From NCBI GenBank assembly GCA_023475035.1, contig JAMCXF010000033.1, forward strand, positions 2,868 to 44,114: a stretch of 41,247 nucleotides of DNA, given 5' to 3'. The translations under genes were made by a program, and so were the position numbers. How positions within the stretch are numbered: position 1 is the first letter of the stretch; each line of letters starts with the position of its first letter. This document shows positions 1,729 through 28,888 of the stretch, in pieces. Origin of the DNA: Candidatus Pacearchaeota archaeon (GTDB lineage: Archaea; Nanobdellota; Nanobdellia; Pacearchaeales; GW2011-AR1). The notes below the pieces were generated by a model that worked only from the letters and a program-made list of their open reading frames with translations, was not told where the DNA came from and did no database searches.

Positions 1729-3130
1729 CTAAAACCTCTTGAACTTCTTCCCGAACTTTTTAGCAAACTTCATCATCTGCTTTTGAGACATTCCCTGCGA
1801 CATATCCATATTTCCAGAACCAACTCCTGACTTAATCATATCGTTGAGGAGTCTGTATTGCTTGATTAAAGAACGAACATCACTCGTCGGAACTCCTGCA
1901 CCTTTTGCAATTCTCGCGATTCTTGAAGTTTGCTTTTCCAAAACTTCTGGATTTTCTTTTTCCTCTTGCGTCATTGACTTAACAATATGCTCCCACTTTG
2001 CAACTTTTGCTTCCTGACTTTCAAGCATTCCTTCTGGAATTTTTGCCTTCATATCTGACAATCCCGGAATCATTGATTTTATTTTTTCAAAACCTCCGAG
2101 ATTTGACATTGACTTGACTTGTTCTATAACATCATCAAGAGTTAATTTTCCTTCTTCAATATTTTTCTGAATTTTTTTCTGCTGGCTTTCTTCTGTAACT
2201 GATTTTATTTTTTCAATCAGAGTTTCCAAATCCCCCATTCCGAGAAGACGGGCGAGGAACGAGCCTGGATTAAATTCTTCAATGTCATTTATTTTTTCCC
2301 CTGTTCCGATAAAATAAACTGGTGCTTGCGTTTCTGCGCAAGCTGTCAATGCTCCCCCTGCTTTTGCAGTTGAATCCATTCTTGTAATTATAACCCCTGA
2401 AATATTCATAGCATCTTTAAACTGGCTTGCCTGCTGTTTTGCTGCCTGCCCAATATCTGCGGGAATAACAAGAATTCTCTCTGTAGGTTTTATTTCCTTG
2501 TCAAGAGACTTTATCTCGTCAATTAATTCCTTGTCTAATGTGTGTCTTCCTGCTGTATCAACAAGAATTAAATTGTAATCTTTCAACTGCAAAAGCAGGG
2601 GGAGCATTGACATTTTCATATTTTTTCCATAACTTGACAGGATTTTTTTCAGTCGCATCAATGAAATAATTCAACTTGTGTTTTTCTGCAAGCTGTTTCA
2701 GTTGCTCTGCGGCAGCAGGACGATGAACATCCAAACCTATAAGTGCAACCTTGAATCCTCGTTTTGCATAATAATTTCCTAACTTAGAAATTGTTGTTGT
2801 CTTTCCGCTTCCATAAAGTCCGAGAAGAAGAACAATATTTTGCTTCTTGTCTAATTTTAACTGCTTGTATTCTCCAAGAATAGCCAAAAGTTCATCGTGA
2901 AGGATTTTTATTATATGCTCCTTTTTTTCAATTCCTTTAACTCTCTCATCCATCGCAGCCTTTTTGATTTTGTCTGATAATTCTTTTACTAATGCTACAT
3001 TAACATCTGCTTCAATCAACGCTCTCTGCAAATCTCTTACGATAGAATCGACTAAATCTTTATCAAGAAAAATAGCATTCGCTATCTTGTCAGTTGCTTT
3101 TTTTATTACTTCTCCAAGTTTCTCTAACAT
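1729..3130 (-). CDS. srp54: Signal recognition particle protein SRP54, split into two overlapping ORFs (2558-3130 and 1729-2661) by an apparent +1 frameshift.
   Basis: The N/G domain start (GLYGSGKTTT, DVHRPAAAEQL) is in the upstream ORF. DTAGRH, ITRMDSTAKAGGAL, LLGMGD and the Met-rich M domain are in the downstream ORF. Confidence 0.85.
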
Positions 3131-3177: not shown

Positions 3178-4359
3178 TTACAACCCCAATCTCTCAATAA
3201 ACTTTTCCTTGTCAAACGGTTCTATCTTGTCATATTCCTGTCCTGTTCCAAGATAAAGAATTGGTTTCTTTGTAACATAACCTACGCTAAGTGCTGTTCC
3301 GCCTTTGTCGTCAATGTCTGCTTTTGTCAAAACAATTCCGTTAATTCCGATTGCCTCGTCAAAACTTCTGACTTGTTCAATCGCGTCATTTCCTGTGATG
3401 CTTTCCCCGACAAAAACTTTCTTGTCTGGCTTGCAAACTTTCACAATTTTTTCCATTTCCTTAAGAAGATTTTTTTGAGTATGCATTCTTCCTGCTGTAT
3501 CAATAAGCACGCAATTCAATAAATTCTTTTTTGCATATTTTATTGCATCAAAACCTACTGCCGCAGGGTCACTGCCATATTCGTGTGCAATTATTTTCAC
3601 TCCAATCTTTTCCCCGTGAGTCTTTAGCTGTTCAATTGACGCGGCACGGAAAGTATCTCCTGCAGCAATTACGCTGGAAATTCCTTTCTTCTTAAGATTC
3701 TCTGCAATTTTTGCAATTGTCGTTGTTTTCCCTGTTCCATTTATCCCGCAAAATAAAATAACATACGGCTCATTGGTACTCAGGAATTTATCCTTTATTT
3801 CAACAGCTAAATTCGGAGGTTCAATAAGAATCTCTCTTATTATATCCTTGAATGATTCGTTGATTTCACTTTCAATTTCTTTTTTCAGAATTTCTTTCCT
3901 GACAACCTTTTCTTTCAAGTCCTTCACAATTTTTTCGGCAACTTCAAGAGCCACATTATTCTCTAAAAGAAGCATTTCAAGCTCCTCGCCATAAACATCA
4001 AATTCTTTTTCAGTTATTTTCACTTTCGAAATTTTCTCGCCAAACTTTTCAAAAATGTTTTTCTTTTTCTCTTCCTCTGTCTCTTCTTCTTTTAGAATTA
4101 TTTTCTTTTCTTCCTTTTCCTGCTTTCTTTTTTCCTTTGCTTCCTTTTTTTCTTTTTTTCTCTCTTCCTTTTCTGTTTTTTTAGTTTCTTTTTCAAAAGA
4201 CACCTTATCGGTTTCTTTTGTAAGCTTCCCTTTATGATACTGCTCACGGCTGATTTCTTCCTGAACTTTCTCTTTTATTTCCTCTTCTGCTTTTTCTTCA
4301 GCCTTCTGGCTAAGTTTTTGCGTCCAGTTTTTCAGTTTTTCTTTTAATTTTCCAAACAT
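3178..4359 (-). CDS. ftsY: SRP receptor FtsY with a Lys/Glu-rich N-terminal domain. Start reassigned to ATG 4359.
   Basis: C-terminal NG domain motifs: GINGTGKTTT, AAGDTFRAA, DTAGRMH, LTKADIDDKGG. The 4359 start coincides with the conserved leader junction gacgcgATG that is also used by rpl44e. Confidence 0.85.
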   Translation of the reverse strand: MFGKLKEKLKNWTQKLSQKAEEKAEEEIKEKVQEEISREQYHKGKLTKETDKVSFEKETKKTEKEERKKEKKEAKEKRKQEKEEKKIILKEEETEEEKKKNIFEKFGEKISKVKITEKEFDVYGEELEMLLLENNVALEVAEKIVKDLKEKVVRKEILKKEIESEINESFKDIIREILIEPPNLAVEIKDKFLSTNEPYVILFCGINGTGKTTTIAKIAENLKKKGISSVIAAGDTFRAASIEQLKTHGEKIGVKIIAHEYGSDPAAVGFDAIKYAKKNLLNCVLIDTAGRMHTQKNLLKEMEKIVKVCKPDKKVFVGESITGNDAIEQVRSFDEAIGINGIVLTKADIDDKGGTALSVGYVTKKPILYLGTGQEYDKIEPFDKEKFIERLGL

Positions 4360-4451
4360 CGCGTCATAGTTTTCGACGAGAAAATTTTTCGCTTTGCAAA
4401 AAATTCGGCGAGAATTCACTCGCTTTGCTCGTCATTTATCTCATAGGGAAG
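4357..4451 (-). promoter_or_regulatory. Conserved leader/promoter element, copy 1, abutting the ftsY ATG.
   Basis: 25/25 nt (4357-4381) and 30/30 nt (4412-4441) are identical to 7696-7720 and 7746-7775. The centre differs between copies. The distal end contains agataaatg, which is TATA-like on the minus strand. Confidence 0.6.
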
Positions 4452-4504
4452 AGCATTCAATTAGTTATTAAGTTTTTGGATTATCTTTTGAAAATGAACA
4501 TAAA

Positions 4505-4535: not shown

Positions 4536-5780
4536 ATGAAGGGTGTGCTGGTGATTGTTGACGGAATGGGCGATTTGCCCAACGAACATCTTGAAGGGAA
4601 AACTCCCTTGGAAGCTGCGAACATGCCAAACGCTGATTTTCTTGCTGCAAGAGGAGAACTAGGGTATATGTATTCTGTAAAGCCAGGATTTATTCCTGAA
4701 TCTGACGAGGCTATTGTTTCTATCTTCGGAAATGAGCTTATTTCTTCTACAAGAGGACAGTTGGAAGCGAGAGGGACAGACATAAAACTTGTAAGAGGGG
4801 ATTTGGCTTTCCGCGCTAACTTTGCAACTATTGACTCTTTAGAATCTGGAAACATTTTAGACAGAAGAGCAGGCAGAAATCTTTCAACACAGGAAGCCGA
4901 GATTCTTGCAAAAGCATTAAACAAAGGCATTAAATTAGAATCGCCTGTTATTTTCAGATCAACTATCGGGCACAGAGGAGTTTTAGTTTTCAAAGGAGGT
5001 TTTTCAGACAACATTTCAGGAAATGATATGGTTTATTTGCCTGGGCAGACAAAAATCTCAGACAAAATTTCCCCAATAAAAGCTCTTGACGAAGAAGAGA
5101 ACTCTCAATACACTGCAAGTATAGCGAATGCTTTTTTAGAGAAAGCTTTTGAAATTCTTAATCATCATCCTGTCAATGAAAGAAGAAGAGAAAAAGGGCT
5201 TTTGCCTGCAAATTTTCTTTTAGTAAGAGGAGCAGGAATTGAAGTTCCTAAATTAAAAAAATACAAAAGGTGGGCTTCTGCTTCTTACATGCCGTTGGAA
5301 AAAGGATTTTCCAGAGTTTGTGAGATGAAAACTTACTCTTTTGATTATCCAAAACTGAGAGGGATTGATGTTTATGAGAATTTATGGGACGGCTTAAGAA
5401 AAGCGTGCAAGTTTTCAATTGCTGTGCTGAAAAGAAACAGAAGAGCATCTGATTATGTTTACATTCACATAAAAGAAACCGATTTGCCTGGGCACGACGG
5501 AAAAGCTATTGTAAAAAAAGAAATGCTTGAATACATTGACAAAACCCTGTTTAACTTTTTAAGAAAATTTGCACCTCCAAATAATATTAATGTAGTTATT
5601 ACTGCTGACCATTGCACTCCCTGTAAAAATCGGGCGCATTCTGCAGACCCTGTTCCTGTTTTATTTTACAATCATTCAATTCCCAAAGAAAAAAAATTCG
5701 ACGAAAATGAAGCAAGAAAAGGAAAACTTGGAAGAATTAACGGGAAAGAACTTTTAGCCAAGGTCAAGTTTTTGAAATAG
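4536..5780 (+). CDS. apgM: Cofactor-independent phosphoglycerate mutase, archaeal type.
   Basis: VLVIVDGMGD, KTPLEAANMPNAD and ITADHCTPC...HSADPVP are typical of ApgM. Confidence 0.8.
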   Translation: MKGVLVIVDGMGDLPNEHLEGKTPLEAANMPNADFLAARGELGYMYSVKPGFIPESDEAIVSIFGNELISSTRGQLEARGTDIKLVRGDLAFRANFATIDSLESGNILDRRAGRNLSTQEAEILAKALNKGIKLESPVIFRSTIGHRGVLVFKGGFSDNISGNDMVYLPGQTKISDKISPIKALDEEENSQYTASIANAFLEKAFEILNHHPVNERRREKGLLPANFLLVRGAGIEVPKLKKYKRWASASYMPLEKGFSRVCEMKTYSFDYPKLRGIDVYENLWDGLRKACKFSIAVLKRNRRASDYVYIHIKETDLPGHDGKAIVKKEMLEYIDKTLFNFLRKFAPPNNINVVITADHCTPCKNRAHSADPVPVLFYNHSIPKEKKFDENEARKGKLGRINGKELLAKVKFLK

Positions 5781-7386: not shown

Positions 7387-7698
7387 TTATTCCTGTATTA
7401 CCTTCCCTGTTCTTTGTCCTTTTTTCTGGTATTTAGATTTATTGCATGTCATGCAAGTGTACATTATATTTGTCTTTTTTGTTGTCTTTGATTTTCTCTT
7501 GAACTTTGAAACTGCGGGTTTACTTCCCCATTTTCCTTTGTTGCCGATTCCTCTTCCGAGTCCTCTTAATTTTGCACGGCTAATTGAACCTCTTGTAAGA
7601 GTTCCTCTCTTTGCTCCAGTTGACACTATCTTTATTTTTTGCTCTGTTTTTGCCTTGCAATAAGGACAAAATCTTTTTGTTGTCTTTGGAATCTTCAT
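7387..7698 (-). CDS. rpl44e: 50S ribosomal protein L44e (eL42).
   Basis: MKIPKTTKRFCPYCKAKTEQK...CMTCNK gives four Cys of a zinc ribbon. Protein is basic, 103 aa. Confidence 0.85.
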   Translation of the reverse strand: MKIPKTTKRFCPYCKAKTEQKIKIVSTGAKRGTLTRGSISRAKLRGLGRGIGNKGKWGSKPAVSKFKRKSKTTKKTNIMYTCMTCNKSKYQKKGQRTGKVIQE

Positions 7699-7785
7699 CG
7701 CGTCATAGTTTTCGACGAGATAATGAACTGGAGTTCATTAGGCGGGAATTCACTCGCTTTGCTCGTCATTTATCTTAAGGGAAGG
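7696..7785 (-). promoter_or_regulatory. Conserved leader/promoter element, copy 2, abutting the rpl44e ATG.
   Basis: Same conserved arms as 4357-4451. The central insert is a perfect 8-bp hairpin, taatgaac-tgga-gttcatta (7721-7740). An in-frame stop 13 codons upstream of the ATG shows it is non-coding. Confidence 0.6.
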
Positions 7786-7848
7786 AGAGAATTTGGGTTT
7801 TTAAAGTTTAAGTTTAATCAGAAATGGCCCTACTACTGAATAAAAATA

Positions 7849-7916
7849 TGGCCCTGCGAACTCGAGCCCCACTCGTTGCAATTAAAACTTTTCTCGCACT
7901 CGTGAAAACTCTCGGG
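7849..7916 (-). repeat. Exact 11-nt duplicate of the tRNA-Val 3' end (tggccctgcga, 7849-7859) plus the conserved ~54-nt trailer module (7861-7916).
   Basis: The duplicate lies exactly 100 nt from the true 3' end. The module ctcgagccccactcgttgcaattaaaacttttctcgcactcgtgaaaactctc is about 93% identical to 28781-28834. Confidence 0.75.
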
Positions 7917-7948
7917 AATTACACCTACGGTTCAATTCAAAATTTAAT

Positions 7949-8020: not shown

Positions 8021-8072
8021 TTTCCCTTAAGTAGAAAGAAACGTTTAAAAAGTTTGTTTATTAATCTATTTT

Positions 8073-8345: not shown

Positions 8346-10190
8346 ATGCTAGAAAAAGAGAGGATGAAGCGAGGACAGGTTACAATTTTTATCATTATTG
8401 CGATAATTATTGTTGCAGGAGTTGCAATTTTTTTATTTGTCTGGCAGGGAATAAGCATTGGACAAATTCCTTCAAATTTTGAACCAGTTTATAACACTTT
8501 TTTATCATGTCTGGAAGACAGAACAATGATTGGAATTGATATTCTTGAAAGTCAGGGGGGATATATTGAACTTCCTGATTTTGAACCTGGCTCTGTTCAT
8601 ATGCCTTTCTCATCGCAATTAAATTTCCTTGGAAATCCAATTCCTTACTGGTATTATGTTTCAGCAAATAATGTTCAGAAAGAACAAATTCCTTCAGAGC
8701 AGGATATGGAAAACTCTCTTGAGAATTTTATTAACGACGGAATAAGAGAGTGCAATTTTGCAAGTTATTATCAGGAAGGATTTGAAATTGTTCAGGGAGA
8801 ACCGAGTGCAAATGTCGACATAAAAGGCAGCAGCGTCGATGTCCGATTGGATATGAGCATGGAAATAACCCGCGGGGAAGATACAGCCTTGATAAGAGAA
8901 CATAATGCAGTTGTTAATTCAAGACTTGGAACTCTTTACAATTCAGCAAAAACTGTCTACCAAAAAGAACAGAGGGAATTATTCCTTGAGGATTATGGGA
9001 TAGACAATTTGAGATTATATGCTCCTGTCGACGGTGTTGAAATAAGCTGCAGCCCAAAAACGTGGAACAGTCACGAAGTATTTGGAGACTTGCAGGAGGC
9101 AATTGAAACAAACACTCTTGCACTAACTACGCAAACACCGACGACAAACGAGGGAAGATATTTTTATGTCGACGCTGGAATAAGCCAAGAGGCACGATTC
9201 ATTAATTCACGAAACTGGGCTTACAGCATTGAAATTCTGCCTTCTCAAAACGGACTGATGATTGCAGATCCTGTCGGAAATCAGCAAGGGCTTGGAATTC
9301 TCGGATTTTGTTATGTTCCTTATCACTTTGTTTATAATGTAAAATACCCTGTTTTAGTCCAGATTTATGAAGGAGATGAAACATTCCAGTTCCCTCTCGC
9401 TGTTATAATTCAGGGAAACAAACCAAGAGAAGAATTAACTTCTTCTGCAACCGACGAGGAGATAGAATTATGCAGCTACAAAAATACAGAAGCCACTGTC
9501 AGAACTTATGACAAAAATCTTAATCCTGTAAATTCAGTTATTTCCTACGAATGCTTCGGAGAAAGCTGTTTCATCGGGAATACAACTTCAGGAATTTTAA
9601 CAACTGAATTTCCGCAATGCAACAACGGATACATAATTGCAAAGGCAGAAGGTTTTGAAGAATCGCAGCAATTATTCTCGACGACAACAGAGGGAAGCGC
9701 AAGCGTGATAATGAACAGGCTTTATGATTTGGATGTGTCCTTAAAATTAAACGGAAACAACTACAACGACAAGGCATTCATTTATTTTGTTTCAGATTCA
9801 AACTCAAAGACAGTCGCTTATCCTGAACAAAAAATCGTTGAATTAAGCGAAGGAACTTATGAAGTTTCAGTTTATGCTTACAAAGATTCTTCGATCCAGT
9901 TGCAGGAAACTACTCATCAGGAATGTGTTGATGTCCCAAGTTCAGGAATTGGCGGAATATTCGGAATTACAGAAAAAAATTGCTTTGATGTAAAAATTCC
10001 TTCACAACTAGTTACAAATGCTCTTGCAGGAGGAGGAACATTAGAGTTCTATTTTACTGAAAATGAATTAAGCAGTTCAAACACTATTGAAATAAACGCA
10101 GCAGGATTTGCAACACCGACGACAATTGAACAGCTGCAGAATAATTATCTTTTATTTGAAGATGCGCAACTGGAGGTAACATTAAATTGA
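8346..10190 (+). CDS. Pilin-like protein with a class III (type IV prepilin-type) signal peptide and a large extracellular domain. The likely true start is ATG 8364 (MKRGQ...).
   Basis: The N-terminus MKRG|QVTIFIIIAIIIVAGVAIFLF fits the [KR]G-[QAS]-hydrophobic prepilin peptidase motif. The rest is hydrophilic and Cys-containing. Confidence 0.65.
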   Translation: MLEKERMKRGQVTIFIIIAIIIVAGVAIFLFVWQGISIGQIPSNFEPVYNTFLSCLEDRTMIGIDILESQGGYIELPDFEPGSVHMPFSSQLNFLGNPIPYWYYVSANNVQKEQIPSEQDMENSLENFINDGIRECNFASYYQEGFEIVQGEPSANVDIKGSSVDVRLDMSMEITRGEDTALIREHNAVVNSRLGTLYNSAKTVYQKEQRELFLEDYGIDNLRLYAPVDGVEISCSPKTWNSHEVFGDLQEAIETNTLALTTQTPTTNEGRYFYVDAGISQEARFINSRNWAYSIEILPSQNGLMIADPVGNQQGLGILGFCYVPYHFVYNVKYPVLVQIYEGDETFQFPLAVIIQGNKPREELTSSATDEEIELCSYKNTEATVRTYDKNLNPVNSVISYECFGESCFIGNTTSGILTTEFPQCNNGYIIAKAEGFEESQQLFSTTTEGSASVIMNRLYDLDVSLKLNGNNYNDKAFIYFVSDSNSKTVAYPEQKIVELSEGTYEVSVYAYKDSSIQLQETTHQECVDVPSSGIGGIFGITEKNCFDVKIPSQLVTNALAGGGTLEFYFTENELSSSNTIEINAAGFATPTTIEQLQNNYLLFEDAQLEVTLN

Positions 10191-13100
10191 ATAAAAAAAT
10201 TTTTATTCTTTTCATACTGACAATTTTATTTTTGCAGATTGTTTCTGCAGAAGTTTTTTCAAATGTTCAGAGTTCAGTGTTTACAAAAGAATCAACAAAA
10301 GCTTTTGACAATGCCTTGTGTCAGGAAGGAAAAGACTTTCTTGTGCAGATTGCTCCTTTCGGATGCGAACCTGCAGTTGTAAGAACTGACTTGCTGGAAG
10401 AGAATGATGTTCAGGTGCATTGCAAACTCGGAGCAACACAAATAAATCCTTTAATTGACGTCGAGACAATTGACAGCATTTCTTTTACAGGAAATTATCC
10501 TGAATCAGTTTCGGGAATTGGATTTCATCCTGCAAAAGCTGCATTGGGAGTAAAAGGAGATTTGAATTCTCCTGTACTGAACAATATTGGATATCTGGTT
10601 ATCAATTTGAAAAAACAGTCAAATGCATCAGCAATTCCTGATTCTGTCGAGGGAACTCTGACTGCGAGAATAAAATACAACATCAAAAATGCTCTCGGAA
10701 TCGGAAGCGCATCACTTTATCTTCAGGAATTAACTCAGGCAGACTGGGCAGACAAGAGAGCACAATACAATTTCTGGAACGGAAAAGGAACATTAAAAGC
10801 AGATGCAATAGGGAGCGACAGCGCGCAAATTTCTGTTTATTCTAATGAGCAAAAAATTTCAAGCGTCAACTTGGACAGGGGAGAGACTTCAAATATGATT
10901 TACATTCCTGGACTGCAATGCCAGGCAGGATTAAAATTAAAACTTGATAGTCTCGAAAATCCAAACACCAGAGCAGTCTTAAGAGTAAATGCAGAAGTAT
11001 TTGAAGTCGCTGCATGCGGGAGCAGTCTTTTCGGTTCTTCCTGCGAGAAATTCTTAGACAATAAATGCACAGTTGTAAGCTTGGAATCCCGAGGAATTAA
11101 TCAGAAAGCGAGAATAAAATGCATCGAAGATGAGAAGACAAGTGAGTTCAGCCTGATAATAAGCCCCAAATTAATTCTAAGCATTAACGGAGCTGAAAAC
11201 GAATACAGCGTCGGTGATTACTTATACAGCGAAGGAAGCAAAAGAGTTTATCTTGCATATATAGGAAATGAAAGAAACAAAAATGACATTAATTCCCTGT
11301 TTGCTTTTTTTGTTTCCAAACCTTCAACAGCAGACAAGCTCAGCGAAGAAGAAATTACATCTTTAGATTCTTTAATCTCCGACATAACTTACAGCGGAGT
11401 TAGTTCTTCAGGCATTATTGATTCAACAAATGATGCGCTGAAAAGTTTTGCAGGATTACTTGTTGCTTTTGGAAGATCTATTAATTCCGGAGAAGAATTG
11501 TTTACTTTGCGTTTTGCAGATGGGGAACGAACTATTTTTGGACAGAATGTTGCAATTAAAAATTTCGTCGGAGCACAGGACCTTGCACTTACAGGAACTG
11601 CAAAAGAATATTACGAAAACGCAAAAGAAGCTTACGAAACAATAAGAAACAGTTACACTTCTGAACCTTACACAAAAGATTCTACTTCAACTTTTGGCGA
11701 AGAAGCTTTTTACAATGAAATATTACTTGCGTGGAGATCCAATCAAAGAAAAACTTCTTATGACTTGTGCCAGGAATTTATGCAGGCATATCCTAACTCA
11801 AACAAGGACTTAAGTTACTGCACCGACGCTATAAAAAATGCAAATGAAGAAATACAGGAAGTTTATGTGACAGTCAATGGAGAAATTAAGACAATTTCTT
11901 TTGACGGAATTGTTGAACCTACTTTTGACGATTACGGAGTAAGAATTGTGATGAGCACCCCTGATGGAATAAATTATTTTGATTTGACAAAAGGAAAAAT
12001 TGTTTATACAAATGAAAACAATGCAGATTATCTTCAGCTTGTTTCTGCCGATGATGATTCTGCCGAGATAAGAACGAGTTTCAGCGTTGAGGGGCTGACT
12101 GAAAGCATAGCAAAAGAATTCAATACAGGGATAATCAGACTGGAGAAAGATACTCCAAAATCTTTTTTAGGAGGATATTCTTTTACCTTAACAAGAATTA
12201 ATCTTAAAAAAACTGCAAAAGTTTCTGTAATTCCGAACATAAATAATGCAGGAACAGAAGCAAACTTTAGTTTCAAAATTGGAATTGAAAAAAGAGCAAT
12301 AAGCCTTCCTCCTGAAAAAACCAGAGAGATAATTACAAATCTTAACAAGACAATAAATCAGTGGAGTGGGATTTCAAATACTCTCGGAACAACCGTTCAG
12401 GGACTTCAGGCAGGATGTCTTGCTGCGGGGACTGCCTTAGTTGCAAAGAACTTCCTTACAGGAACTGGCGGAGCAGGAATTGCAAGACAAACTGTAATGA
12501 GAGGCAGCGACGGATGGACAGAAAAATGCACTGATTTAGTTGCTCAAAAAACTTACGAGTCATTAGATAAATGCTACCTTGAAAATTCGGATAAAATTGA
12601 CAAAGATGTTGAAGAAGTTTCAAGAATTATTGAACAGCAAAACACAAGAATTAAGCAATTGGAATCTGGGATTACCAAAACAGAATTTTTAACTGACAGC
12701 ATTGTAAACACAAGCGCATTCATGCAGAGATATATTCCTGAAGTTAGTGAATGCATTGGAAATCAAGGCTATACAGACCCAAGCGGGAAAGGAGCTGAAA
12801 TAACTTCTGCAGATTTGAATTCAATTTCTTACATCAACTGGGAAGATAATAAATATTTCAGCAAAGAAGATTTGAGAGACATTGAATTATATTGCGATGT
12901 CTTGAAATCAAACACTGCAAGCAATGAGTTAAAAGCAATTGCAAGACAAAGAATTTATTCTAATTTGCTAGATGTTAAAACAAATGCAGGAAATAAAGTT
13001 GTCATTACGAATTTAGCAAATTCTTTCGGAATTGCATCTGATGACATAACTTTTGTTGAAACAGGAGAAAATGTCAGAAAATTCCGATATGAGGGATTAA

Positions 13101-16100
13101 CAAATGGAAATACTGGAAACAGAATTTCAGGGGAAGGAATTACTTCTGAAACGCCTGTTGCTGTTGTTTCAACTTCCGACGGAAAACAGTACATTGTTGC
13201 ATTAGACAATTCAGCAGGAACACAACAGCTCCCTGTAAAGAAAGTTTACACTTCTACTGGAGTTCCTGTAGATACTCCTCCAGAATTTACAAGAATTTAT
13301 TTCCAGAGATATGACGCAGGCAGTTATCAGAATCAGTACAAGAATGCACAGTTAAGATATTATGAGACTGAACCTTACAAAGGACTTCCTGCAATGGTTC
13401 CTTTTGATTTGAAAAACGGATGGTATGCAGCGACGAAACAAACTCTTCCTACTGGAGGAAATATTCAGCCATTTGACTCTTCTGCGCGTCCTAATAGTTT
13501 TTATTTATGTAACGTCGGAGAAAACGGATTGGAAGAATTTCAGACAATTGGCGATGATACCTGCGAAATGATTAATCTAGGAACAGGAATGCCTTACAGC
13601 CAATTCCCAGGACTTGACGAGAGAGAAGCAAAAACTTTGATAGACAAAGGTGTTCAGGCAATTTCTCAGGCATCAAGATTATACAGAGCAGGATTGTCGG
13701 GAAAAGTTAACATTCTTGGAGAAGTTGTTGAAGTTGGAAGTCCTGCAGCAGATATTCCTCAATTCCAATGTCAGGATTTTATGTCTCCTAAAGAATGTCT
13801 TTTATTATTCAACTTGTGTGACCCTGTAATTTGTCCTTCGAGCAGATGTGATTTGGGCGGGGCATATCCTGTCAAAGATGTTGTGCAATCAGGAGTGATA
13901 GGAAGCCTTGTTTTGTGTTTGCCTAACATGCAGGAGGGAATTATTTTCCCTGTATGCCTTACAGGAGTAAAAGCAGGCCTAGATGGATTTTTGTCAATTC
14001 TTAATTCTTACAAAGATTGTCTTCAGGAAAGCTTGGACACAGGAAAAGTTGTAGGTATCTGCGACGAGATTTACAGCATTTATGTTTGTGATTTCTTCTG
14101 GAGACAAGCACTTCCATTCGCCGACATAGTGATTCCAAAAGTTGTTGAATCTCTTCTTGGGCAAAATGTAAGAGGCGGTGGAGAATATGCAGGAGTAGAA
14201 AGTTCATGGAGCCTTGCTGAACAGTCAATAAGTTATTTCACAAATTATTACGGTGTTAATGCAAAGAATGCATTCCTGACGAGAACAACAGAGACAATAC
14301 AGAGTGAAGTGTGCAAATCATATGTTTCTGCAGTTGTTCCAACAGGCGCTGATTTTGTAAATAAAATAACTACACCAGCTTCTCCTGTTCAGTTCACAGG
14401 AAGATTTGATGAGATTCCGTTGACAACTGCAACAGTTCCTCCAACTTCGCATTATAAAGTATTTTATCATATATTTGCAGGAAAAGATTCTGGCGCTTAC
14501 TACCAAGTTTATCTGAAAGGAAGCCCTGAAACTTCATACTATCAGGATGCATCGCAGAATTTGATAATTGCTTCTGGATACGTCGCTGTCGGAGGTTATG
14601 CAACTGACACTCCTGACTTGACAGCAGTTTCAGGATATAATCAAATGTGCATAAATGTAAACGGGCAGGAAGTATGTGGGTTTAAGGAAGTTTCAACTGA
14701 CTTTGCAATTAATTACGTCAAGGATACTTATCTTGCAGAACAGGCTACTACGACAGACATAACAACAGAGTCTGAATGCATCTCAGGAAGTGCGAGCATT
14801 TACAATTTACTTACTCCCAATGCTCAGGCTGGTGTTGAAGGAGCAATTAATCCTGCGATTTATGACAGAGGAATAACGAGAATATGTGCAACAGAAAATC
14901 CTGGACTGGGAACTGACATTAATGTTTATACTACTACTCCTGTAACTGGCGGAGTAATAACAGGAAAAGTTGGATTTATCGACGAGGAAGACAAAACCCC
15001 TACGCCAACAGAAACAACAATTGAAGAAGTTCCTCCAACAACCATAGAAGAAGATAAAAAAATAATTGAAAATCTCACAAAGGATCCTGGAGTAGTTGAA
15101 GGGCCAAGATGGGTTGCTGTTGGATATTGTGATAATGAAAAAATAAAATGCTGGCTTGATACTGAGAGTGTCAAAGATGTAATAAAGGGAACAACGATTG
15201 AAGGAGATGCGTTGGATGAAGTTACACAAAATTATATGGAAGTATTGCTTAATGAGGGAAATTACTTGAGTGAAAAGGATTTCTCTTCGGCAATTCAGGA
15301 AATAGAAAAAGAAAAAGACAACTCAAAGAAACTGAATTTAATCAGCAACATCTTTGGAAATGTATTTTGGAGCACAGAAAAAGTTCAGTTGATTTTCTTG
15401 AGAGGAAATGCATATGCTGAATTGCTGGCTGTTGTTTTAAAAGAACAACCAAAACCAGATCAAACAATTACAGGTGTTAAAGAAACAGAAGGAGTAAAAG
15501 AAAAATATCTTAACCTTGACGCACGGGATAGAGTTCTTGCTGCTGCTGCAGATTTAGACGGCACAATTGTTCCCGGAAGAAACCTAAAAACAGGAACTGG
15601 ATTAGGCGCGGTTCCGATAAATAAAAATTGTCTTTCTGCTGCATATTCAGTTTATGAAACTGCAGGAGTTAGTTATTCCTGTGTTTATTCAAATCCTTAT
15701 TCAGACAAATTTGCAATTAAAACAAGCGCAGCGATGGAAAATACTCTTACAAGAAATGGTATAACAAATTTACAGGCGTATAATGCTGCCAAATCATCAG
15801 CAGAAACGCGAACAATAACTCTTGATGTTGACAAAAGACCAGACAAAACTCACGCCACCTGGATTACCAATGAAAGATGCAAGGGCGTTACTGAAGAACA
15901 AAAATTGAACTCTCTTCAGCCTGGAGATTTCATACTTTATGTATGGAGTGCAACATGGCCTTCCTACAATAATTATCAATCTCTTGCATATGACTATGAT
16001 CACGCAGCAATTTTTATTCGATGGGCTGATGAAAAAAACAGGATTGCAGTATTATTTGACTGGAATGGAGCTTCACCCGGAAATAGCTGGGGAATAAAAA

Positions 16101-17035
16101 TGGGGGAGCAGGATAAAAATGGAAAGATTTGCACAGATGAAAATAGATATTACAACAAAGATAAAAATCCAACACCTTTCTGCGCAATTTACAGATATTA
16201 CGAGGTGGATTTGAAAGATGATGCTCACCCTGTATACTTGTTCCAGGTACCATATATAGCAGGACAGTCAGTTCCAGGAGATAAAAAAGGCGTCGATACT
16301 ATTACAACTGATTCGGACTCTGCAGACGCATCCAGAATTTCTGAAATAATCAATCCAACTTATCCTATAAGCTACAAAATATTTTTAGAATCAACTAAAT
16401 TTGCAGGAACTTCAGGAACTTCTCTTTCATTTGTGACTCAGTCATTATCCAATGCGAAGGCAGTAAGCAAATCTTTCCCGACGATTAATGAATTGACTTC
16501 AATCTTAAGTGCTGACAAAAATTTTGTCGAAGTTGACATTAACAATCTCCAGAAAGGTGATGTAATTTTATTAGGAAAAGGATGCGATTTGGATTCTGTT
16601 GGAATCTTTTCTGAATACCGTTCTGATAAAAAAGAGATTACTTATTACACAAGTGTCGACGGAAAAGTCCAGGAAGTTAAAAGCAGTTTTGTCACAAAAA
16701 TAGACTTTAATTTATTCATTTACAAATATGTTTACCGAGCTTACAGATATGTTGGAGATTTAACTGACACTGAGAAGAATACGGTGGTGAAGGCAAGAAC
16801 ACGATGGACACTTTCTTCTGCTCTTGAGAGATTTATTTCTGCAGGAGCGCCAACAGGAGATTATAATAAGAATAAGATTTTCTCTGATGAAATTGTATTC
16901 GACGGAATTCTTACAAAACAGGAATGCCAGGATTTGACAGGGGGAATTTTAGGCTTTGGAAAAGATATGAACTGGCTTAAAACAAAATTATTGGAAAAAC
17001 AAAGTGCTTCAGGAGTTTCTGGTTTTGCACATTAA
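10187..17035 (+). CDS. Giant secreted protein (2,282 aa). It has a Sec signal peptide, a central Cys-rich/hydrophobic region and a C-terminal NlpC/P60-like papain-fold module.
   Basis: MNKKIFILFILTILFLQIVSA|E. The TTG start overlaps the upstream TGA (TTGA), with GGAGGT at 10172-10177. A Cys cluster lies around aa 1185-1300. KNCLSAAYSVYETAG (Cys ~1815), LQPGDFILYVWS and DHAAIFI (His ~1939) resemble the NlpC/P60 Cys/His motifs. Confidence 0.7.
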   Translation: MNKKIFILFILTILFLQIVSAEVFSNVQSSVFTKESTKAFDNALCQEGKDFLVQIAPFGCEPAVVRTDLLEENDVQVHCKLGATQINPLIDVETIDSISFTGNYPESVSGIGFHPAKAALGVKGDLNSPVLNNIGYLVINLKKQSNASAIPDSVEGTLTARIKYNIKNALGIGSASLYLQELTQADWADKRAQYNFWNGKGTLKADAIGSDSAQISVYSNEQKISSVNLDRGETSNMIYIPGLQCQAGLKLKLDSLENPNTRAVLRVNAEVFEVAACGSSLFGSSCEKFLDNKCTVVSLESRGINQKARIKCIEDEKTSEFSLIISPKLILSINGAENEYSVGDYLYSEGSKRVYLAYIGNERNKNDINSLFAFFVSKPSTADKLSEEEITSLDSLISDITYSGVSSSGIIDSTNDALKSFAGLLVAFGRSINSGEELFTLRFADGERTIFGQNVAIKNFVGAQDLALTGTAKEYYENAKEAYETIRNSYTSEPYTKDSTSTFGEEAFYNEILLAWRSNQRKTSYDLCQEFMQAYPNSNKDLSYCTDAIKNANEEIQEVYVTVNGEIKTISFDGIVEPTFDDYGVRIVMSTPDGINYFDLTKGKIVYTNENNADYLQLVSADDDSAEIRTSFSVEGLTESIAKEFNTGIIRLEKDTPKSFLGGYSFTLTRINLKKTAKVSVIPNINNAGTEANFSFKIGIEKRAISLPPEKTREIITNLNKTINQWSGISNTLGTTVQGLQAGCLAAGTALVAKNFLTGTGGAGIARQTVMRGSDGWTEKCTDLVAQKTYESLDKCYLENSDKIDKDVEEVSRIIEQQNTRIKQLESGITKTEFLTDSIVNTSAFMQRYIPEVSECIGNQGYTDPSGKGAEITSADLNSISYINWEDNKYFSKEDLRDIELYCDVLKSNTASNELKAIARQRIYSNLLDVKTNAGNKVVITNLANSFGIASDDITFVETGENVRKFRYEGLTNGNTGNRISGEGITSETPVAVVSTSDGKQYIVALDNSAGTQQLPVKKVYTSTGVPVDTPPEFTRIYFQRYDAGSYQNQYKNAQLRYYETEPYKGLPAMVPFDLKNGWYAATKQTLPTGGNIQPFDSSARPNSFYLCNVGENGLEEFQTIGDDTCEMINLGTGMPYSQFPGLDEREAKTLIDKGVQAISQASRLYRAGLSGKVNILGEVVEVGSPAADIPQFQCQDFMSPKECLLLFNLCDPVICPSSRCDLGGAYPVKDVVQSGVIGSLVLCLPNMQEGIIFPVCLTGVKAGLDGFLSILNSYKDCLQESLDTGKVVGICDEIYSIYVCDFFWRQALPFADIVIPKVVESLLGQNVRGGGEYAGVESSWSLAEQSISYFTNYYGVNAKNAFLTRTTETIQSEVCKSYVSAVVPTGADFVNKITTPASPVQFTGRFDEIPLTTATVPPTSHYKVFYHIFAGKDSGAYYQVYLKGSPETSYYQDASQNLIIASGYVAVGGYATDTPDLTAVSGYNQMCINVNGQEVCGFKEVSTDFAINYVKDTYLAEQATTTDITTESECISGSASIYNLLTPNAQAGVEGAINPAIYDRGITRICATENPGLGTDINVYTTTPVTGGVITGKVGFIDEEDKTPTPTETTIEEVPPTTIEEDKKIIENLTKDPGVVEGPRWVAVGYCDNEKIKCWLDTESVKDVIKGTTIEGDALDEVTQNYMEVLLNEGNYLSEKDFSSAIQEIEKEKDNSKKLNLISNIFGNVFWSTEKVQLIFLRGNAYAELLAVVLKEQPKPDQTITGVKETEGVKEKYLNLDARDRVLAAAADLDGTIVPGRNLKTGTGLGAVPINKNCLSAAYSVYETAGVSYSCVYSNPYSDKFAIKTSAAMENTLTRNGITNLQAYNAAKSSAETRTITLDVDKRPDKTHATWITNERCKGVTEEQKLNSLQPGDFILYVWSATWPSYNNYQSLAYDYDHAAIFIRWADEKNRIAVLFDWNGASPGNSWGIKMGEQDKNGKICTDENRYYNKDKNPTPFCAIYRYYEVDLKDDAHPVYLFQVPYIAGQSVPGDKKGVDTITTDSDSADASRISEIINPTYPISYKIFLESTKFAGTSGTSLSFVTQSLSNAKAVSKSFPTINELTSILSADKNFVEVDINNLQKGDVILLGKGCDLDSVGIFSEYRSDKKEITYYTSVDGKVQEVKSSFVTKIDFNLFIYKYVYRAYRYVGDLTDTEKNTVVKARTRWTLSSALERFISAGAPTGDYNKNKIFSDEIVFDGILTKQECQDLTGGILGFGKDMNWLKTKLLEKQSASGVSGFAH

Positions 17036-19563: not shown

Positions 19564-20454
19564 ATGATTAAGCTAACTTTTTTAGGAACTTCAGATGCAA
19601 TTCCTACTGCAGAAAGAAATCATACTTCTATTCTGTTGAACTACAAAGAGGAAAATATACTTGTTGACTGCGGAGAAGGAACTCAGAGGCAATTCAGGAA
19701 AGCAAAATTAAATCCGAATAAAGTAACCCGAATTTTAATTACTCACTGGCACGGAGATCACGTTCTGGGAATTCCAGGAATACTTCAGACGTTGAGCTTC
19801 AGCGAATACAATAAAACTCTTTACATTTACGGGCCTCTGGGGACAAAAGAATTTATGAGAAATCTTTTCAAAACTTTTGTTTTTCATAAAAATTTCAAAA
19901 TAGAAGTTGAAGAAGTCAGCGGGAAATTTTTTGAGACAGATGATTTTTATATTGAAGCAGAAAAAATGAGGCATGGCATTCCCTGCAATGCTTACAATTT
20001 TGTAAAAAAAGGAAATTTAAGAATTGACAAAAAGAAACTTGCAAAAACAAAAATTCAGGGGCCGATTTTGAAAAAATTGAAAGATGGAAAAGATATTGTT
20101 TATCAGGGGAAAAAGTATCTTGCTAAAAATTTGACATATACAGAAGACGGAAAAAAAGTTTCGTTTGTTTTTGACACTTCTTTTAATGAAAGAATAGTTC
20201 CTTTTGTAAAAAATTCTGATTTGCTAATCTGTGAATCGACTTTTGGAACAGAGATGGAGGACAGGGCAGAAGAATACAAACATCTTACTTCAAAACAAAC
20301 TGCCGAAATAGCAAAGAAGTCAAACTCTAAAAAACTTATTCTTACGCACATAAGCCAAAGATACAGCAAAAATCCCAAGAAGATTCTTGATTCTGCTAAA
20401 AAGATATTCAAGAATTCTCACTTAGTGAAAGATTTGGATGAGATTGAAGTTTAA
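19564..20454 (+). CDS. rnz: Ribonuclease Z (tRNA 3' endonuclease).
   Basis: Metallo-beta-lactamase motif ITHWHGDHVLGIPGIL. FLGTS and NHTSILL at the N-terminus. 296 aa. Confidence 0.85.
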   Translation: MIKLTFLGTSDAIPTAERNHTSILLNYKEENILVDCGEGTQRQFRKAKLNPNKVTRILITHWHGDHVLGIPGILQTLSFSEYNKTLYIYGPLGTKEFMRNLFKTFVFHKNFKIEVEEVSGKFFETDDFYIEAEKMRHGIPCNAYNFVKKGNLRIDKKKLAKTKIQGPILKKLKDGKDIVYQGKKYLAKNLTYTEDGKKVSFVFDTSFNERIVPFVKNSDLLICESTFGTEMEDRAEEYKHLTSKQTAEIAKKSNSKKLILTHISQRYSKNPKKILDSAKKIFKNSHLVKDLDEIEV

Positions 20455-20494
20455 TAGAAAGGTTTTAAATAGAATTTTTTCTTATGTTGATTAT

Positions 20495-20615
20495 GCCCTG
20501 GTAGCTCAGCCTGGATAGAGCATTAGCCTTCTAAGTGAGATGGGAAATCTCCCATTCTTCCTTTCGAGGAAAAGAAGAAAGCTAAGGGTCGCAGGTTCAA
20601 ATCCTGTCCGGGGCG
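20495..20615 (+). tRNA. tRNA-Arg (UCU) with a ~46-nt intron at the canonical 37/38 position (about 20534-20579).
   Basis: Exons give GCCCTGG/CCGGGGC acceptor, anticodon loop CTTCTAA, T arm GCAGG-TTCAAAT-CCTGT. The intron carries two hairpins: atggga-aatc-tcccat and ttcct-ttcg-aggaa. Confidence 0.85.
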
Positions 20616-22090: not shown

Positions 22091-23881
22091 CTACTTTGTG
22101 AATCTAGGTTTTGCTCCTGTTAAATCCAGGTATTTATCTTTTACCTTTTCTTGAATTTCTTTTTTCTTGGTAATCTTTGCTCTTGGAATTGTGATTCTCG
22201 CAGATATTTTCTTTTTGGGCAATTTGACTTGTTTTTTATGGGCTTTTTTTCTTTTTCTTTTTTTAGTATTTTTTTTCTGTCTTTTCCTTTGATAAATATA
22301 AATTATAACTCCTAATAACACAGCTATCCCCAGCACTACAAACATGTTGGTATTCTGTTTTATAACATTGAATGTTGCCGTTGCACTTGCAAATCTTTCA
22401 TTATATTTAACTTTGACATAAAGAATATATTTCCCGCTGTTTACATTTTCAGGAACTTTAATCCTTTTTAAAAAACCAACTTTCGTTTCCACAGCAATTG
22501 TTTCTTTTTCTGTTAATACTTTATTCCCTTCATCATCTTCTATTACATATTCTATTTCTACATCTGCTCTTTTGAGGAGTCCAAGGTTGAATAACTCTAT
22601 TTCGGCAAGAATTTCCTTTCCTGGCAAAACATTAGAATATTCTTCGGGAATATTTACTCTCAAATCAAAAAGGGCGTCTTTATATTCAACTTCTATCATT
22701 ACTAAAACTTCCTCTGTTGTCATACCATTTTTTATAATCAACTTCCCAACATATAAATCTGGAACAACTTCTTCCCTTATTATTACGTCAAAAGAAATGT
22801 CTCTTGTTTCTCCAGCCTCTAATTCAATCTGCGTTTCATCTAACAGAATAATACCGTCAAGATTTTCCTCAGTTAATGATATGCTTATTTTTTCATCTAA
22901 AATATTTGTTATTGTAATCTTTTTTGTTGTTATACTTCCGGGAGTGAGAGATATACTTATTTCACTAGAATCTAAACTAAAACTTTTAATTTTTTTTATA
23001 ACAGCACCGTCTCCTCCAGAACCGCCGCTGGAACTTCCACCTGCCGGTATTATAGGAGGGACAACAACAGGAGTTTCTTCTGCGGAATAAACTGAAAAAG
23101 ATGTAACATTAAATTTTAAGATTCCTCCTGCATAAGACTCTAATGTGCAAATTGTTGAAGGGCAAATATTCCCTTCTCGTAAAATTCTCGGATCTGAAAA
23201 AGTTAAATCATAAAGAGACAGCGTAGCTGTTTTGTTAAAATTTGGGAGAGCTGTTGAATTTATTGCGATTCTATTCGATGAGATGTTAATATAAGAATTA
23301 ATATCAATCTCACCATCAGAGAAATCTTCATCGTCTGTCAGATTTATATTTTCATTAAATTTTATTTTTCCAAAATCTGTATTCTCTAAAATTATATCAC
23401 TAAAATTTTGCAGTTCTTCATAAGAATAATTGGAAAAATTAGTTGTTTCTCCTTTTTTCTCCCCCTCATATTTATTTTTGTTTACAGAAAATTTTGAAGA
23501 ATCAACAAAAAAAGTGACATTTTTTAATATCTCTCCATTTGAATTGCTTGCATACAAAAATAAAATATGACTTCCTTGAGACGTGCTAAAAGATGTTGAA
23601 TGTGTCAATGTTATATTTTCGCCAGAATCAAGGCTATACCAAACACTTTCTTCATTGCTTGCTGTATAACTAATCGGAATTGATTGATTTCTTATATATG
23701 TTTGATTTTTTGGATTGATTAGGCTCAATACTGGAAGTTCGGCTGAAACAGAAAGGTTTTTGAAAAGATTTCCTTCAATTGCAGATGAGGGGGTTATTGA
23801 AGATGCAGGGCTGACTGAAACCCATGCATTTACATTTAATGATAAAAAAATAACCAAAACTAGAAAAAAAATTTTTTTCAT
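22091..23881 (-). CDS. Surface protein (596 aa) with a signal peptide, beta-sandwich-like repeats, a C-terminal TM anchor and a Lys/Arg-rich tail.
   Basis: MKKIFFLVLVIFLSLNVNA, a G/S linker, ...NMFVVLGIAVLLGVIIYIY-QRKRQKKNTKKRKRKK. The start overlaps the upstream stop (ATGA). Confidence 0.65.
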   Translation of the reverse strand: MKKIFFLVLVIFLSLNVNAWVSVSPASSITPSSAIEGNLFKNLSVSAELPVLSLINPKNQTYIRNQSIPISYTASNEESVWYSLDSGENITLTHSTSFSTSQGSHILFLYASNSNGEILKNVTFFVDSSKFSVNKNKYEGEKKGETTNFSNYSYEELQNFSDIILENTDFGKIKFNENINLTDDEDFSDGEIDINSYINISSNRIAINSTALPNFNKTATLSLYDLTFSDPRILREGNICPSTICTLESYAGGILKFNVTSFSVYSAEETPVVVPPIIPAGGSSSGGSGGDGAVIKKIKSFSLDSSEISISLTPGSITTKKITITNILDEKISISLTEENLDGIILLDETQIELEAGETRDISFDVIIREEVVPDLYVGKLIIKNGMTTEEVLVMIEVEYKDALFDLRVNIPEEYSNVLPGKEILAEIELFNLGLLKRADVEIEYVIEDDEGNKVLTEKETIAVETKVGFLKRIKVPENVNSGKYILYVKVKYNERFASATATFNVIKQNTNMFVVLGIAVLLGVIIYIYQRKRQKKNTKKRKRKKAHKKQVKLPKKKISARITIPRAKITKKKEIQEKVKDKYLDLTGAKPRFTK

Positions 23882-28752: not shown

Positions 28753-28888
28753 AATGGCTCTGGAGAGTGCTGACCTCTTACTCGAGCCCCCACTCGTTGC
28801 AATTAAAATTTATCTCGCACTCGTGAAAACTCTCTACCCAACTCCCCACTCGTAGCTATAAAAATTACTGGCACTCGTGAAAACTCTC
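28753..28888 (-). repeat. Exact 25-nt duplicate of the tRNA-Met 3' end (28753-28777) plus two tandem copies of the trailer module (28781-28834 and 28842-28888).
   Basis: aatggctctggagagtgctgacctc is identical to 28918-28942. The modules share cccactcgt...gcactcgtgaaaactctc with 7861-7916. Confidence 0.75.

Follow-up and report, generated by a model that had tools for sequence, protein, structure and literature searches.

A short element, proposed to be a structured leader with a variable hairpin, fills the space from predicted transcription start to ATG at ftsY and at a probable rpl44e gene in a Candidatus Pacearchaeota archaeon

Miniature inverted-repeat transposable elements, or MITEs, are known in Sulfolobus and in haloarchaea. 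Prokaryotic MITEs, including those of archaea, have been reviewed (PMC10969869). In Neisseria, the Correia repeat enclosed elements (CREE) are gene-adjacent, non-coding units of about 100 nt that are co-transcribed in 5' untranslated regions (UTRs), contain stem-loops, alter the expression of the neighbouring gene and differ in presence or absence between strains (PMC2649163, PMC2229807). For archaea, translational coupling by termination-reinitiation (PMC6728339, PMC10666635) and initiation on leaderless mRNAs (PMC7261190) have been described. Here, we analyzed a stretch of 41,247 nt from a Candidatus Pacearchaeota archaeon (assembly GCA_023475035.1, contig JAMCXF010000033.1, positions 2,868 to 44,114 of the forward strand; this whole stretch is called the window in the following), in which a leader-like element is found in two copies, one directly upstream of ftsY and one directly upstream of a probable rpl44e gene. 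As the best explanation, to which we give an even chance, we propose that the element is an inserted, co-transcribed and structured leader of sporadic or mobile nature.

Both copies lie on the minus strand and each of them ends at an ATG. The gene behind the second copy is called only probable rpl44e, because the Pfam L44 match of its product (19.9 bits) is below the cut-off of 25. The closest proteins to those of the window come from metagenome-assembled genomes (MAGs) named Nanoarchaeia, Nanoarchaeota or Pacearchaeota. The two loci comprise the following features:

4357-4359, minus strand: start codon of ftsY (Pfam SRP54 2e-70; homologues named FtsY)
4360-4441, minus strand: copy A, 82 nt, AGATAAATGACGAG...CTATGACGCG, directly 5' of the ftsY ATG; 112.5 bits with covariance model R1; absent from the orthologous site in the relatives L024, L027 and L029
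4442-4451 (in copy B 7776-7784), minus strand: extra common flank CTTCCCT... 5' of the predicted transcription start, in copies A and B only
7696-7698, minus strand: start codon of probable rpl44e, encoding a 103-amino-acid zinc-ribbon protein, upstream of S3Ae
7699-7775, minus strand: copy B, 77 nt, directly 5' of the probable rpl44e ATG; 87.5 bits with R1; absent from the orthologous site in L024 and L029

The original prediction, made from the sequence of the window, had claimed identical arms at both loci, and exact-word counts bear this out. The proximal arm, a 25-mer (catcgcgtcatagttttcgacgaga), occurs exactly twice in the window (4357-4381 and 7696-7720), as does the distal arm, a 30-mer (gaattcactcgctttgctcgtcatttatct; 4412-4441 and 7746-7775), and in 100 shuffles no arm match was obtained with up to three mismatches permitted. 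The similarity of the arms runs on inward (attcggcgag / attaggcggg) and outward up to agggaag, the latter also as predicted, and the identity between 4403-4453 and 7737-7787 amounts to 86%. The extra flank of copies A and B is missing from the copies X11, X3 and L010 described below and from the empty sites. Further claims of the same prediction were likewise found to hold: a shared leader adjoins the ATG at 4359 (FtsY) and at 7698 (probable L44e), the inverted repeat GACGAG/CTCGTC is present in both copies, and the middle part is unrelated between the copies yet self-complementary in each of them. Both copies are reproduced without differences in an independent Logan assembly of the source run (mine tailings). 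Across all known copies the length of the element is 63-85 nt, and its only open reading frame (ORF) is a non-conserved upstream ORF (uORF) of 19-24 codons.

The element is present at a given gene in some genomes and absent from the same gene in close relatives. In L024, which is syntenic over 21 kb and encodes an FtsY 82% identical to that of the window, the ftsY site (...cttaataaccaattaaagacttctaaaaatATG) and the rpl44e site (...aaactttaaaaacccaaattctcttttctttttaATG) are both empty, with the same promoters and conserved flanks. At ftsY the same TATA box stands 22 nt before the ATG, and at rpl44e the identical promoter aaactttaaaaacccaaattctc stands 23 nt before it, where the window reads ...aaactttaaaaacccaaattctctccttcccttaag followed by the 77 nt of copy B and the ATG. 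The ftsY site is also empty in L027, L028 and L026, which were located via their FtsY homologues, and L029/L030 are empty at ftsY and rpl44e. L029 and L010 are contigs of one MAG (DAHXOU01), in which the element is found at spt5-rpl11 only; the gene behind it on L010 matches Spt5-NGN (1e-15), and this copy is the only other exact one found among 185,579 GTDB species genomes. The run X3 has an empty spt5 site with a joint that skips L010 1134-1213, and many spt5 starts in X4, X7 and X13 diverge exactly at the ATG. An spt5 gene was found neither in the window nor in the loci of its relatives.

Additional copies were sought with exact-arm scans and with a covariance model, the latter as the original prediction had suggested, and were found in other genomes and metagenomes at ftsY, at spt5 and at two other genes. 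Copies at ftsY are present on Logan contigs of X11, X16 and X17. The X10 copy precedes a gene starting MASESTYKI and the X3/X4 copy a gene starting MADIFD; comparison of these two genes with the loci examined gave no identification. Altogether five gene contexts are known, with empty orthologous sites at ftsY, rpl44e and spt5. In all six contexts compared, the element points in the direction of the gene, and 0-3 nt lie between its end and the ATG. The copy number is small: the complete source run X1 contains two copies only and X6 contains one, both being well covered. Model R1 found no further copy in 125 kb of the relatives, Viral contigs gave no exact-arm match, and since a protein search with the in-frame translations of the element (MTSKASEF...) yielded no candidate, no annotated protein carries it as an N-terminal extension. 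Several other hits were discarded: a match in L003 (Aenigmatarchaeota) from the GTDB scan is a chance match inside a coding region on the other strand, nine JGI metagenome matches to the arms are chance matches in GC-rich coding DNA, and all fifty matches to a degenerate arm were rejected by the covariance model.

A diverged member of the family was recognized through P0098, an FtsY annotated with an odd N-terminal extension (...LVEFNDTM), which led to locus L031 (FtsY 64% identical). At this ftsY gene the TATA box and 22 nt are followed by ATGAAACGAGACAATTATCATCTTGCAAACAGAAGTTTGCAATCTCGTCGAATTCAATGACACG and then by the ATG. This 63-nt version (R1 24.8 bits, E 5e-5) retains the 3' arm, the helix P1 described below and a new P3 hairpin, and is devoid of P2. 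In L032, a near relative of L031, the ftsY site is empty, so the pattern of presence and absence recurs in a second clade. Because of this diverged version, the element family must be older and more varied than exact-word searches reveal. Other leaders occupy the same place. At ftsY, L025 carries a different structured leader of 85 nt (5665-5746) that is not recognized by R1 and has an outer stem identical to the P3 stem of the L010 copy, with nothing else in common. At rpl44e, about 23 extra nt are present in L029 (6660-6706). The junction between transcription start and ATG of ftsY and rpl44e thus seems to be a recurrent insertion site.

The one or two copies per genome, the different genes occupied in each genome and the clean empty sites favour insertion over loss, and lineage-specific insertions would fit this distribution better than many precise losses. 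The distribution also bears on a host cis-regulatory leader RNA, that is, a three-way-junction aptamer or protein site which co-regulates growth genes (ftsY, rpl44e-rps3ae, spt5-rpl11) at the level of translation and is gained and lost in the course of evolution without being selfishly mobile. The identified targets are indeed core expression and secretion genes, a diverged version is present at the same gene in the distant relative L031, and the arms of copy A and of the X11 ftsY copy are identical even though the upstream flank has diverged beyond alignment. However, the nearest relatives lack the element at the same genes and keep a normal leaderless promoter there, each genome has only one or two targets, and the set differs each time. 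This presence and absence at orthologous sites makes a cis-regulatory role less likely, and overall we consider it unlikely.

The position of the element with respect to the promoters was analyzed next to that of other genes. A TTTAWAWA-like box is found at 14 protein genes and at all five tRNA genes of the window, and for most of these 19 promoters its 3' end lies 21-23 nt from the ATG or from the first base of the mature tRNA (range 15-28; e.g. 8021-8060 and 20455-20494). This near-constant spacing of about 22 nt suggests that mRNAs and tRNAs encoded in the window are mostly leaderless, with a start fixed by the distance from the TATA box. Leaderless tRNAs are known for Nanoarchaeum equitans, which is devoid of RNase P. 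A core-anchored position weight matrix (PWM) was built from the 19 promoters (training sites score 5-13, the 99th percentile of the background is 3.5), an ATG-aligned matrix being too blurred for use. The scan returned the native TATA boxes of both genes outside the element:

4465-4472, minus strand: native TATA box of ftsY, CTTAATAA; plus 22 nt leads to a predicted transcription start at 4442/4441
7798-7805, minus strand: native TATA box of rpl44e, TTTAAAAA, PWM score 10.8; plus 22 nt leads to a predicted transcription start at 7775

In both copies, the position 22 nt from the TATA box is the first base of the common sequence AGATAA..., and the element occupies the interval from the predicted transcription start to the ATG. 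Inside either copy the PWM scan gave no score above 4 and no TATA-like site. The distal TATA-like AGATAAATG that the original prediction had pointed out is therefore not a TATA box, the native one lying 22 nt 5' of the first base of the element. Its suggestion of a mobile promoter or leader cassette can be kept for the leader, given the empty ftsY and rpl44e sites in relatives and the copies at spt5 and two other genes, and has to be dropped for the promoter, because the native TATA box lies outside the element and none lies inside. A promoter cassette with its own B recognition element and TATA box, and with a transcription start inside or after the element, would have two candidate sequences to draw on: the distal AGATAAAT, or GCGAAAAATTTT, which is the A/T-rich 3' half of P3 and lies 21-22 nt upstream of the ATG. 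Copy A, L010 and X3 do have an A/T-rich run that ends 21-22 nt before the ATG of the gene, which is the right distance. Yet copy B has GTTCATTA at that place, the 19-promoter matrix gives no score above 4 within the element, both copies retain the native TATA box, correctly spaced from the element's first base, and the covariation of P3 described below implies that P3 is within the RNA. We therefore regard a promoter cassette as scarcely credible.

If transcribed from the native promoter, the element would be present as a 5' leader, and its sense strand is predicted to fold into a three-way junction. RNAalifold, applied to eight copies, and the single-sequence minimum free energy folds of copies A, B and L010 give the same structure, with P1 of 6-7 bp, P2 of 5 bp with a UGAAUU loop, and P3 of 8-11 bp:

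4428-4434, minus strand: predicted P1 5' strand UGACGAG of copy A, pairing with 4374-4380 (copy B strands 7762-7768 and 7713-7719)
4374-4380, minus strand: predicted P1 3' strand CUCGUCG of copy A (RNAalifold, single-sequence folds, pair counts)
4408-4423, minus strand: predicted P2 hairpin GCGAG-UGAAUU-CUCGC of copy A (copy B 7742-7757, with one A.C mismatch)
4382-4406, minus strand: variable hairpin P3 of copy A, 11 bp, stem 4382-4392/4396-4406, loop AAA
7721-7740, minus strand: variable hairpin P3 of copy B, UAAUGAAC-UCCA-GUUCAUUA (taatgaac/gttcatta)

These predictions agree with the earlier proposal of a minus-strand RNA folded as AUGACGAG, hairpins and CUCGUCG. The 8-bp stem taatgaac/gttcatta was located at 7721-7728/7733-7740 as expected, and the stem that had been described as a weaker A/T stem in the ftsY copy is present, with 11 bp, and complete on the minus (sense) strand only, where one of its pairs is G.U. 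The suggested check for covariation gave compensatory changes in P3. Including L031, seven different P3 stems are found across the copies, all of them paired, and five pairs have changes on both sides. In all, 96-97% of the cells are paired, the value being 96.4% in the set in which the uncertain 5' arms of X10, X16 and X17 were masked; none of 500 shuffles reached the observed values, and slid controls were paired to 43-56%. On the sense strand there are three G.U-only states (P3 of A, P3 of X11 and P1 of X11), on the antisense strand one. Together, these data support the P3 hairpin as a structure of the sense-strand RNA; P1 and P2 are predicted only. P1 varies by one G-C to G.U change (X11) and by a mismatch of the innermost pair (L010, X3), while P2 is invariant apart from the A.C mismatch in copy B and is missing in L031. 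Downstream of the junction, a 15-nt tail is invariant, predicted to be single-stranded and without a Shine-Dalgarno-like motif. Single-sequence folding of 117-121 nt windows was not significant on either strand (z -0.8 to -2.0), a clean fold being obtained only for the element alone.

The fold bears on two of the alternatives. Retained P3 pairing through compensatory changes and sense-strand G.U intermediates would also be expected from the cis-regulatory leader considered above; against it, P1 and P2 are conserved in sequence and do not covary, P2 is dispensable in L031, and Rfam gave no match. The second alternative places the function at the DNA level: the arms and the P2 palindrome would bind a recombinase, a transposase or a transcription factor, and the central palindrome would be maintained by hairpin-templated repair (quasi-palindrome correction). 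Every helix is also a DNA inverted repeat, the arms are conserved in their primary sequence, P2 forms a near-palindrome of 16 bp, the change in P2 of copy B pairs on the opposite strand only, and other short copy-paste events are present in the window. Templated correction, however, gives perfect Watson-Crick palindromes, yet G.U-only states on the sense strand were seen three times. Moreover, the orientation to the gene is fixed in six of six contexts, and the element lies 3' of the predicted transcription start and hence would be transcribed anyway. A DNA-level element appears highly improbable to us on these grounds.

An AUG close to the predicted 5' end of the RNA opens the uORF in both copies:

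4433-4435, minus strand: upstream AUG of copy A, opening a 23-codon uORF, 6-7 nt from the predicted 5' end
4364-4366, minus strand: stop codon UGA of the uORF in copy A, 4 nt 5' of the ftsY AUG; same layout in X11, X16 and L031
7767-7769, minus strand: upstream AUG of copy B, 24-codon uORF
7695-7697, minus strand: UGA stop of the copy B uORF, overlapping the rpl44e AUG (AUGA)

In A, B, X11, L010 and L031, the TATA spacing predicts a transcription start 0-7 nt 5' of the upstream AUG. The uORF stops at the UGA of CUAUGACGCG, 4 nt before the AUG of the gene, in A, X11, X16 and L031; elsewhere the gap is 6 nt (X3) or 7 nt (X10), the two reading frames overlap by 4 nt (B), or the uORF is fused in frame to the gene (L010). 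Reinitiation in archaea occurs over overlaps or very short gaps only and is nearly gone at about 20 nt (PMC6728339, PMC10666635), and the gaps between the putative uORFs and the genes fall within this range.

Taken together, the inserted structured leader could work in three steps. First, the unchanged native promoter would transcribe the entire element as a 5' leader. Second, this leader would fold as a three-way junction, with P1 (UGACGAG/CUCGUCG), a fixed P2 and a P3 that is free in sequence with its pairing kept. Third, and this is the weakest step, the AUG of the element, 0-7 nt from the new 5' end of the RNA, would be used like a leaderless start, and the 3' arm would bring the ribosome to the gene's own AUG by termination-reinitiation. 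According to this proposal, the host gene would still be expressed because the element brings an AUG near the RNA 5' end. For the translation step taken alone we have only limited confidence and put it forward tentatively.

The edges of the element also allow a different fate of the transcript, in which an endonuclease would cut the RNA of the inserted element just 3' of the junction and release a leaderless or short-leader mRNA, the DNA boundaries then being RNA ends. P1 stacked on P3 would resemble an acceptor/T-arm minihelix and thus a tRNase Z-type substrate, or the cut might follow GACGCG. In line with this, the left side of the element begins at the predicted transcription start, and its right side ends 0-3 nt short of the ATG, the place at which leaderless transcripts start, with an A as the next base in all cases. 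P1 has 7 bp and is predicted to continue into P3 across a 1-nt junction, the invariant tail is single-stranded and lacks a Shine-Dalgarno-like motif, and a tRNase Z-like gene is present in the window (19564-20454). On the other hand, neither a tRNA nor a ribozyme match was found even at permissive thresholds, a T-loop is absent and a bulge-helix-bulge cannot be drawn at the boundaries, so that processing of this kind seems distinctly improbable.

Several points weigh against the view that the element is an inserted, mobile leader translated via its uORF. Repeated precise loss of an old leader is a possible cause of the presence and absence pattern. The element has neither terminal inverted repeats nor a consistent target duplication, no transposase is encoded in the window, and one or two copies per genome are unlike most MITEs. 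The arms of X11 are identical to those of copy A despite an upstream flank that cannot be aligned; this points to selection acting on the arm sequence and speaks for a host function. About 10 nt of extra flank are common to copies A and B, whose P3 hairpins are nevertheless unrelated, and a single recent copying event does not explain this. In X3, a TATA-like TTTATAAT lies only 2 nt 5' of the element, which does not fit the transcription-start geometry, although this site may be operon-internal; at both copies of the window, the transcription starts are predicted from TATA spacing only. P1 and P2 have almost no informative variation, and the A.C mismatch in P2 of copy B pairs only on the other strand. 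Several copies were rebuilt from Logan contigs, and differences less than 30 nt from a contig end were not listed, which makes the 5' arms of X10, X16 and X17 uncertain. Finally, the main type and L031 have no conserved uORF peptide in common, and since any of the three frames of the 3' arm would be compatible with reinitiation, the uORF layout is not a strong test of the model.

As to the route by which the proposed inserted leader might move, templated patch insertion is possible, since the window shows other short copy-paste events. A more specific idea, which we rate as a long shot, is that the DNA boundaries of the element are RNA ends, its first base being the transcription start and its last base lying just before the 5' end of the leaderless mRNA, so that it would be a mobile element specific for archaeal transcription start sites. 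The base after the element is always A, 0-3 nt before the ATG. By an RNA route, the leader RNA, thought of as abundant, could be joined to the 5' end of another leaderless transcript, by ligation or by template switching of a reverse transcriptase, and be copied back into the genome; by a DNA route, an enzyme could be directed to the open promoter complex, in the way that Ty3 is directed to Pol III start sites. If the idea is true, the element's own AUG, stop codon and fold would let leaderless genes survive the insertion.

The window contains other short repeats and rearrangements. Inserts of about 90-160 nt are located on the minus strand 3' of tRNA-Val (7826-7948) and of tRNA-Met (28757-28919). 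The sequence GAGAGTTTTCACGAGTG...ACGAGTGGGG(G)CTCGAG is present once in the insert behind tRNA-Val and as two tandem copies in the one behind tRNA-Met. Each is followed by a second copy of the 3' end of the respective tRNA (tcgcagggcca; gaggtcagcactctccagagcca). The arrangement has the appearance of a small insertion directed to the 3' ends of tRNAs, with an att-like duplication; no copy was detected in the loci of relatives searched. The resemblance between these inserts and the reverse complement of the leader element, which had been noted before, is real but of borderline strength (p about 0.002-0.03 for the local alignment when compared with shuffles). The acidic N-terminal part of ftsY (4185-4259) has a 75-nt in-frame segment in common, at 91% identity, with an otherwise unrelated 348-amino-acid ORF at 29266-30312 (29802-29876) that has no Pfam match; the segment encodes SREQY(H/F)KGKLTKETDKVSFE. 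Because it is absent from the FtsY orthologue P0002, it represents a recent copy-paste into coding sequence. SRP54 (1729-3130) appears to be broken up into two overlapping ORFs, through a perfect inverted copy (31 nt) of a segment lying further downstream (arms 2344-2374 / 2582-2612). In a Logan contig of the same run, 22 nt of this region (2591-2612) are missing, which makes it probable that the break arose in assembly or is a minor variant of the window sequence.

Three further features of the window are of a different kind. At 20495-20615, a tRNA gene of 121 nt is recognized by Rfam (52.9 bits), whereas ARAGORN missed it. It exceeds a standard tRNA by about 50 nt, consistent with an intron after the anticodon region, and the additional sequence bears no relation to the leader element. 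Within a 785-amino-acid ORF (23878-26235) with an SO2946-like C-terminal domain, a 72-nt repeat is present in three copies (25116-25646; 83-85% identical). A giant ORF of 2282 amino acids with a TTG start spans 10187-17035, with syntenic counterparts of 2340 amino acids in L024 and 2173 amino acids in L029; the matching called genes in the Logan copy L001 and in the relatives have no precomputed Pfam match.

Known RNA and DNA classes were compared with the element. The original prediction had tentatively likened its arms to halves of a kink-turn. Such an L7Ae-binding motif, in which a three-nucleotide bulge precedes tandem sheared G.A / A.G pairs, cannot be drawn, since Watson-Crick pairing within P1 takes up the GA dinucleotides: that of AUGACGAG is paired with the UC of CUCGUC, and no register provides tandem G.A pairs. 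Rfam yielded no match at gathering thresholds, and matches with E up to 10 are at chance level only (gltS, 22 bits versus 47.5; 6A, 18.5 versus 41.2). By eye, G12 and C3 of a hammerhead core are absent and no H/ACA motif is seen. AUGACGA is one mismatch away from a C box (RUGAUGA), and no D box (CUGA) is found at the required distance on either strand. A bulge-helix-bulge intron would have a 5' exon of 0-7 nt and 3' exons that differ after the AUG, and no 4-bp helix with 3-nt bulges is found around P1. The ends of attC sites and of IS200/IS605-like elements do not fit either. Typical traits of MITEs found here are a small non-coding unit and an insertion polymorphism among relatives at several sites. 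Between the two termini, compared as AGATAAATGACG and, for the right end, its reverse complement CGCGTCATAGTT, there is no match, and only the 6-7 bp of P1 form a subterminal inverted repeat. Comparison of filled and empty sites gave no target-site duplication of fixed length; the sequence shared at the junctions measures 3, 4, 5 or 7 nt and is always part of (A)AATGA, as results from the element's own AUG and the A-rich start contexts. A related autonomous element or transposase was found neither in the window nor in the loci searched.

What is unusual about the element is its apparent specificity for the junction between transcription start and ATG of leaderless genes, together with its built-in AUG and stop codon. 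Archaea of this kind appear to make both their mRNAs and their tRNAs without leaders, in agreement with the TATA spacing in the window. An insertion of 80 nt at position +1 of essential genes would be expected to be harmful, and its persistence before ftsY, a ribosomal-protein operon and spt5, with compensatory evolution in its hairpin, suggests a cassette that either sustains translation or serves regulation. The element may thus represent a natural test of how ribosomes of a leaderless type deal with a structured leader, be it by an upstream AUG and reinitiation or by processing. At the same time it would be a rare, well-delimited small insertion with an apparent preference for transcription starts in reduced DPANN genomes. 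Even if it were merely a lineage-restricted MITE-like repeat, it would still mark recent genome change in uncultured Nanoarchaeota.

Among the systems with which the element may be compared, archaeal tRNA introns transpose and C/D box small RNA genes relocate, so that short structured RNA units come to lie at non-orthologous sites, often at gene ends. The present element differs from both in that no bulge-helix-bulge can be drawn at its boundaries and C, D, C' and D' boxes are missing. Palindrome-associated elements derived from IS200/IS605 carry two hairpins that resemble each other, one at each end, and their insertion takes place 3' of a fixed tetra- or pentanucleotide. They share with our element the lack of terminal inverted repeats and of a target duplication as well as subterminal hairpins, P2 starting 18 nt from the left end, near the spacing of IS608; however, the second hairpin of our element is variable and unrelated to the first, and its left flanks have no target motif in common. 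With archaeal reinitiation coupling it shares a 5'-proximal AUG and a short ORF whose stop overlaps the next AUG (AUGA) or precedes it by 4-7 nt, without a Shine-Dalgarno sequence. Known cases of such coupling are native gene pairs, whereas here a uORF read from sequence alone, with an unconserved peptide, would lie on an inserted structured cassette. MITEs resemble the element in being small, non-autonomous and ORF-free with conserved ends, a variable interior and insertion polymorphism, but the terminal inverted repeats and target-site duplication that define them are lacking here, and neither a parent element nor a transposase was found. The CREE, ERIC, RUP and BOX repeats are likewise small, non-coding, gene-adjacent units that fold and vary in presence and absence. 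CREE have 26-nt terminal inverted repeats, duplicate a TA target, can create promoters and occur in hundreds of copies, whereas the element described here has neither terminal inverted repeats nor a consistent duplication nor a promoter, is present once or twice per genome and is fixed at the junction between transcription start and ATG. Overall, in the way it would work, it comes closest to the small mobile repeats of bacteria that have turned into structured 5' UTRs, such as the Correia elements.

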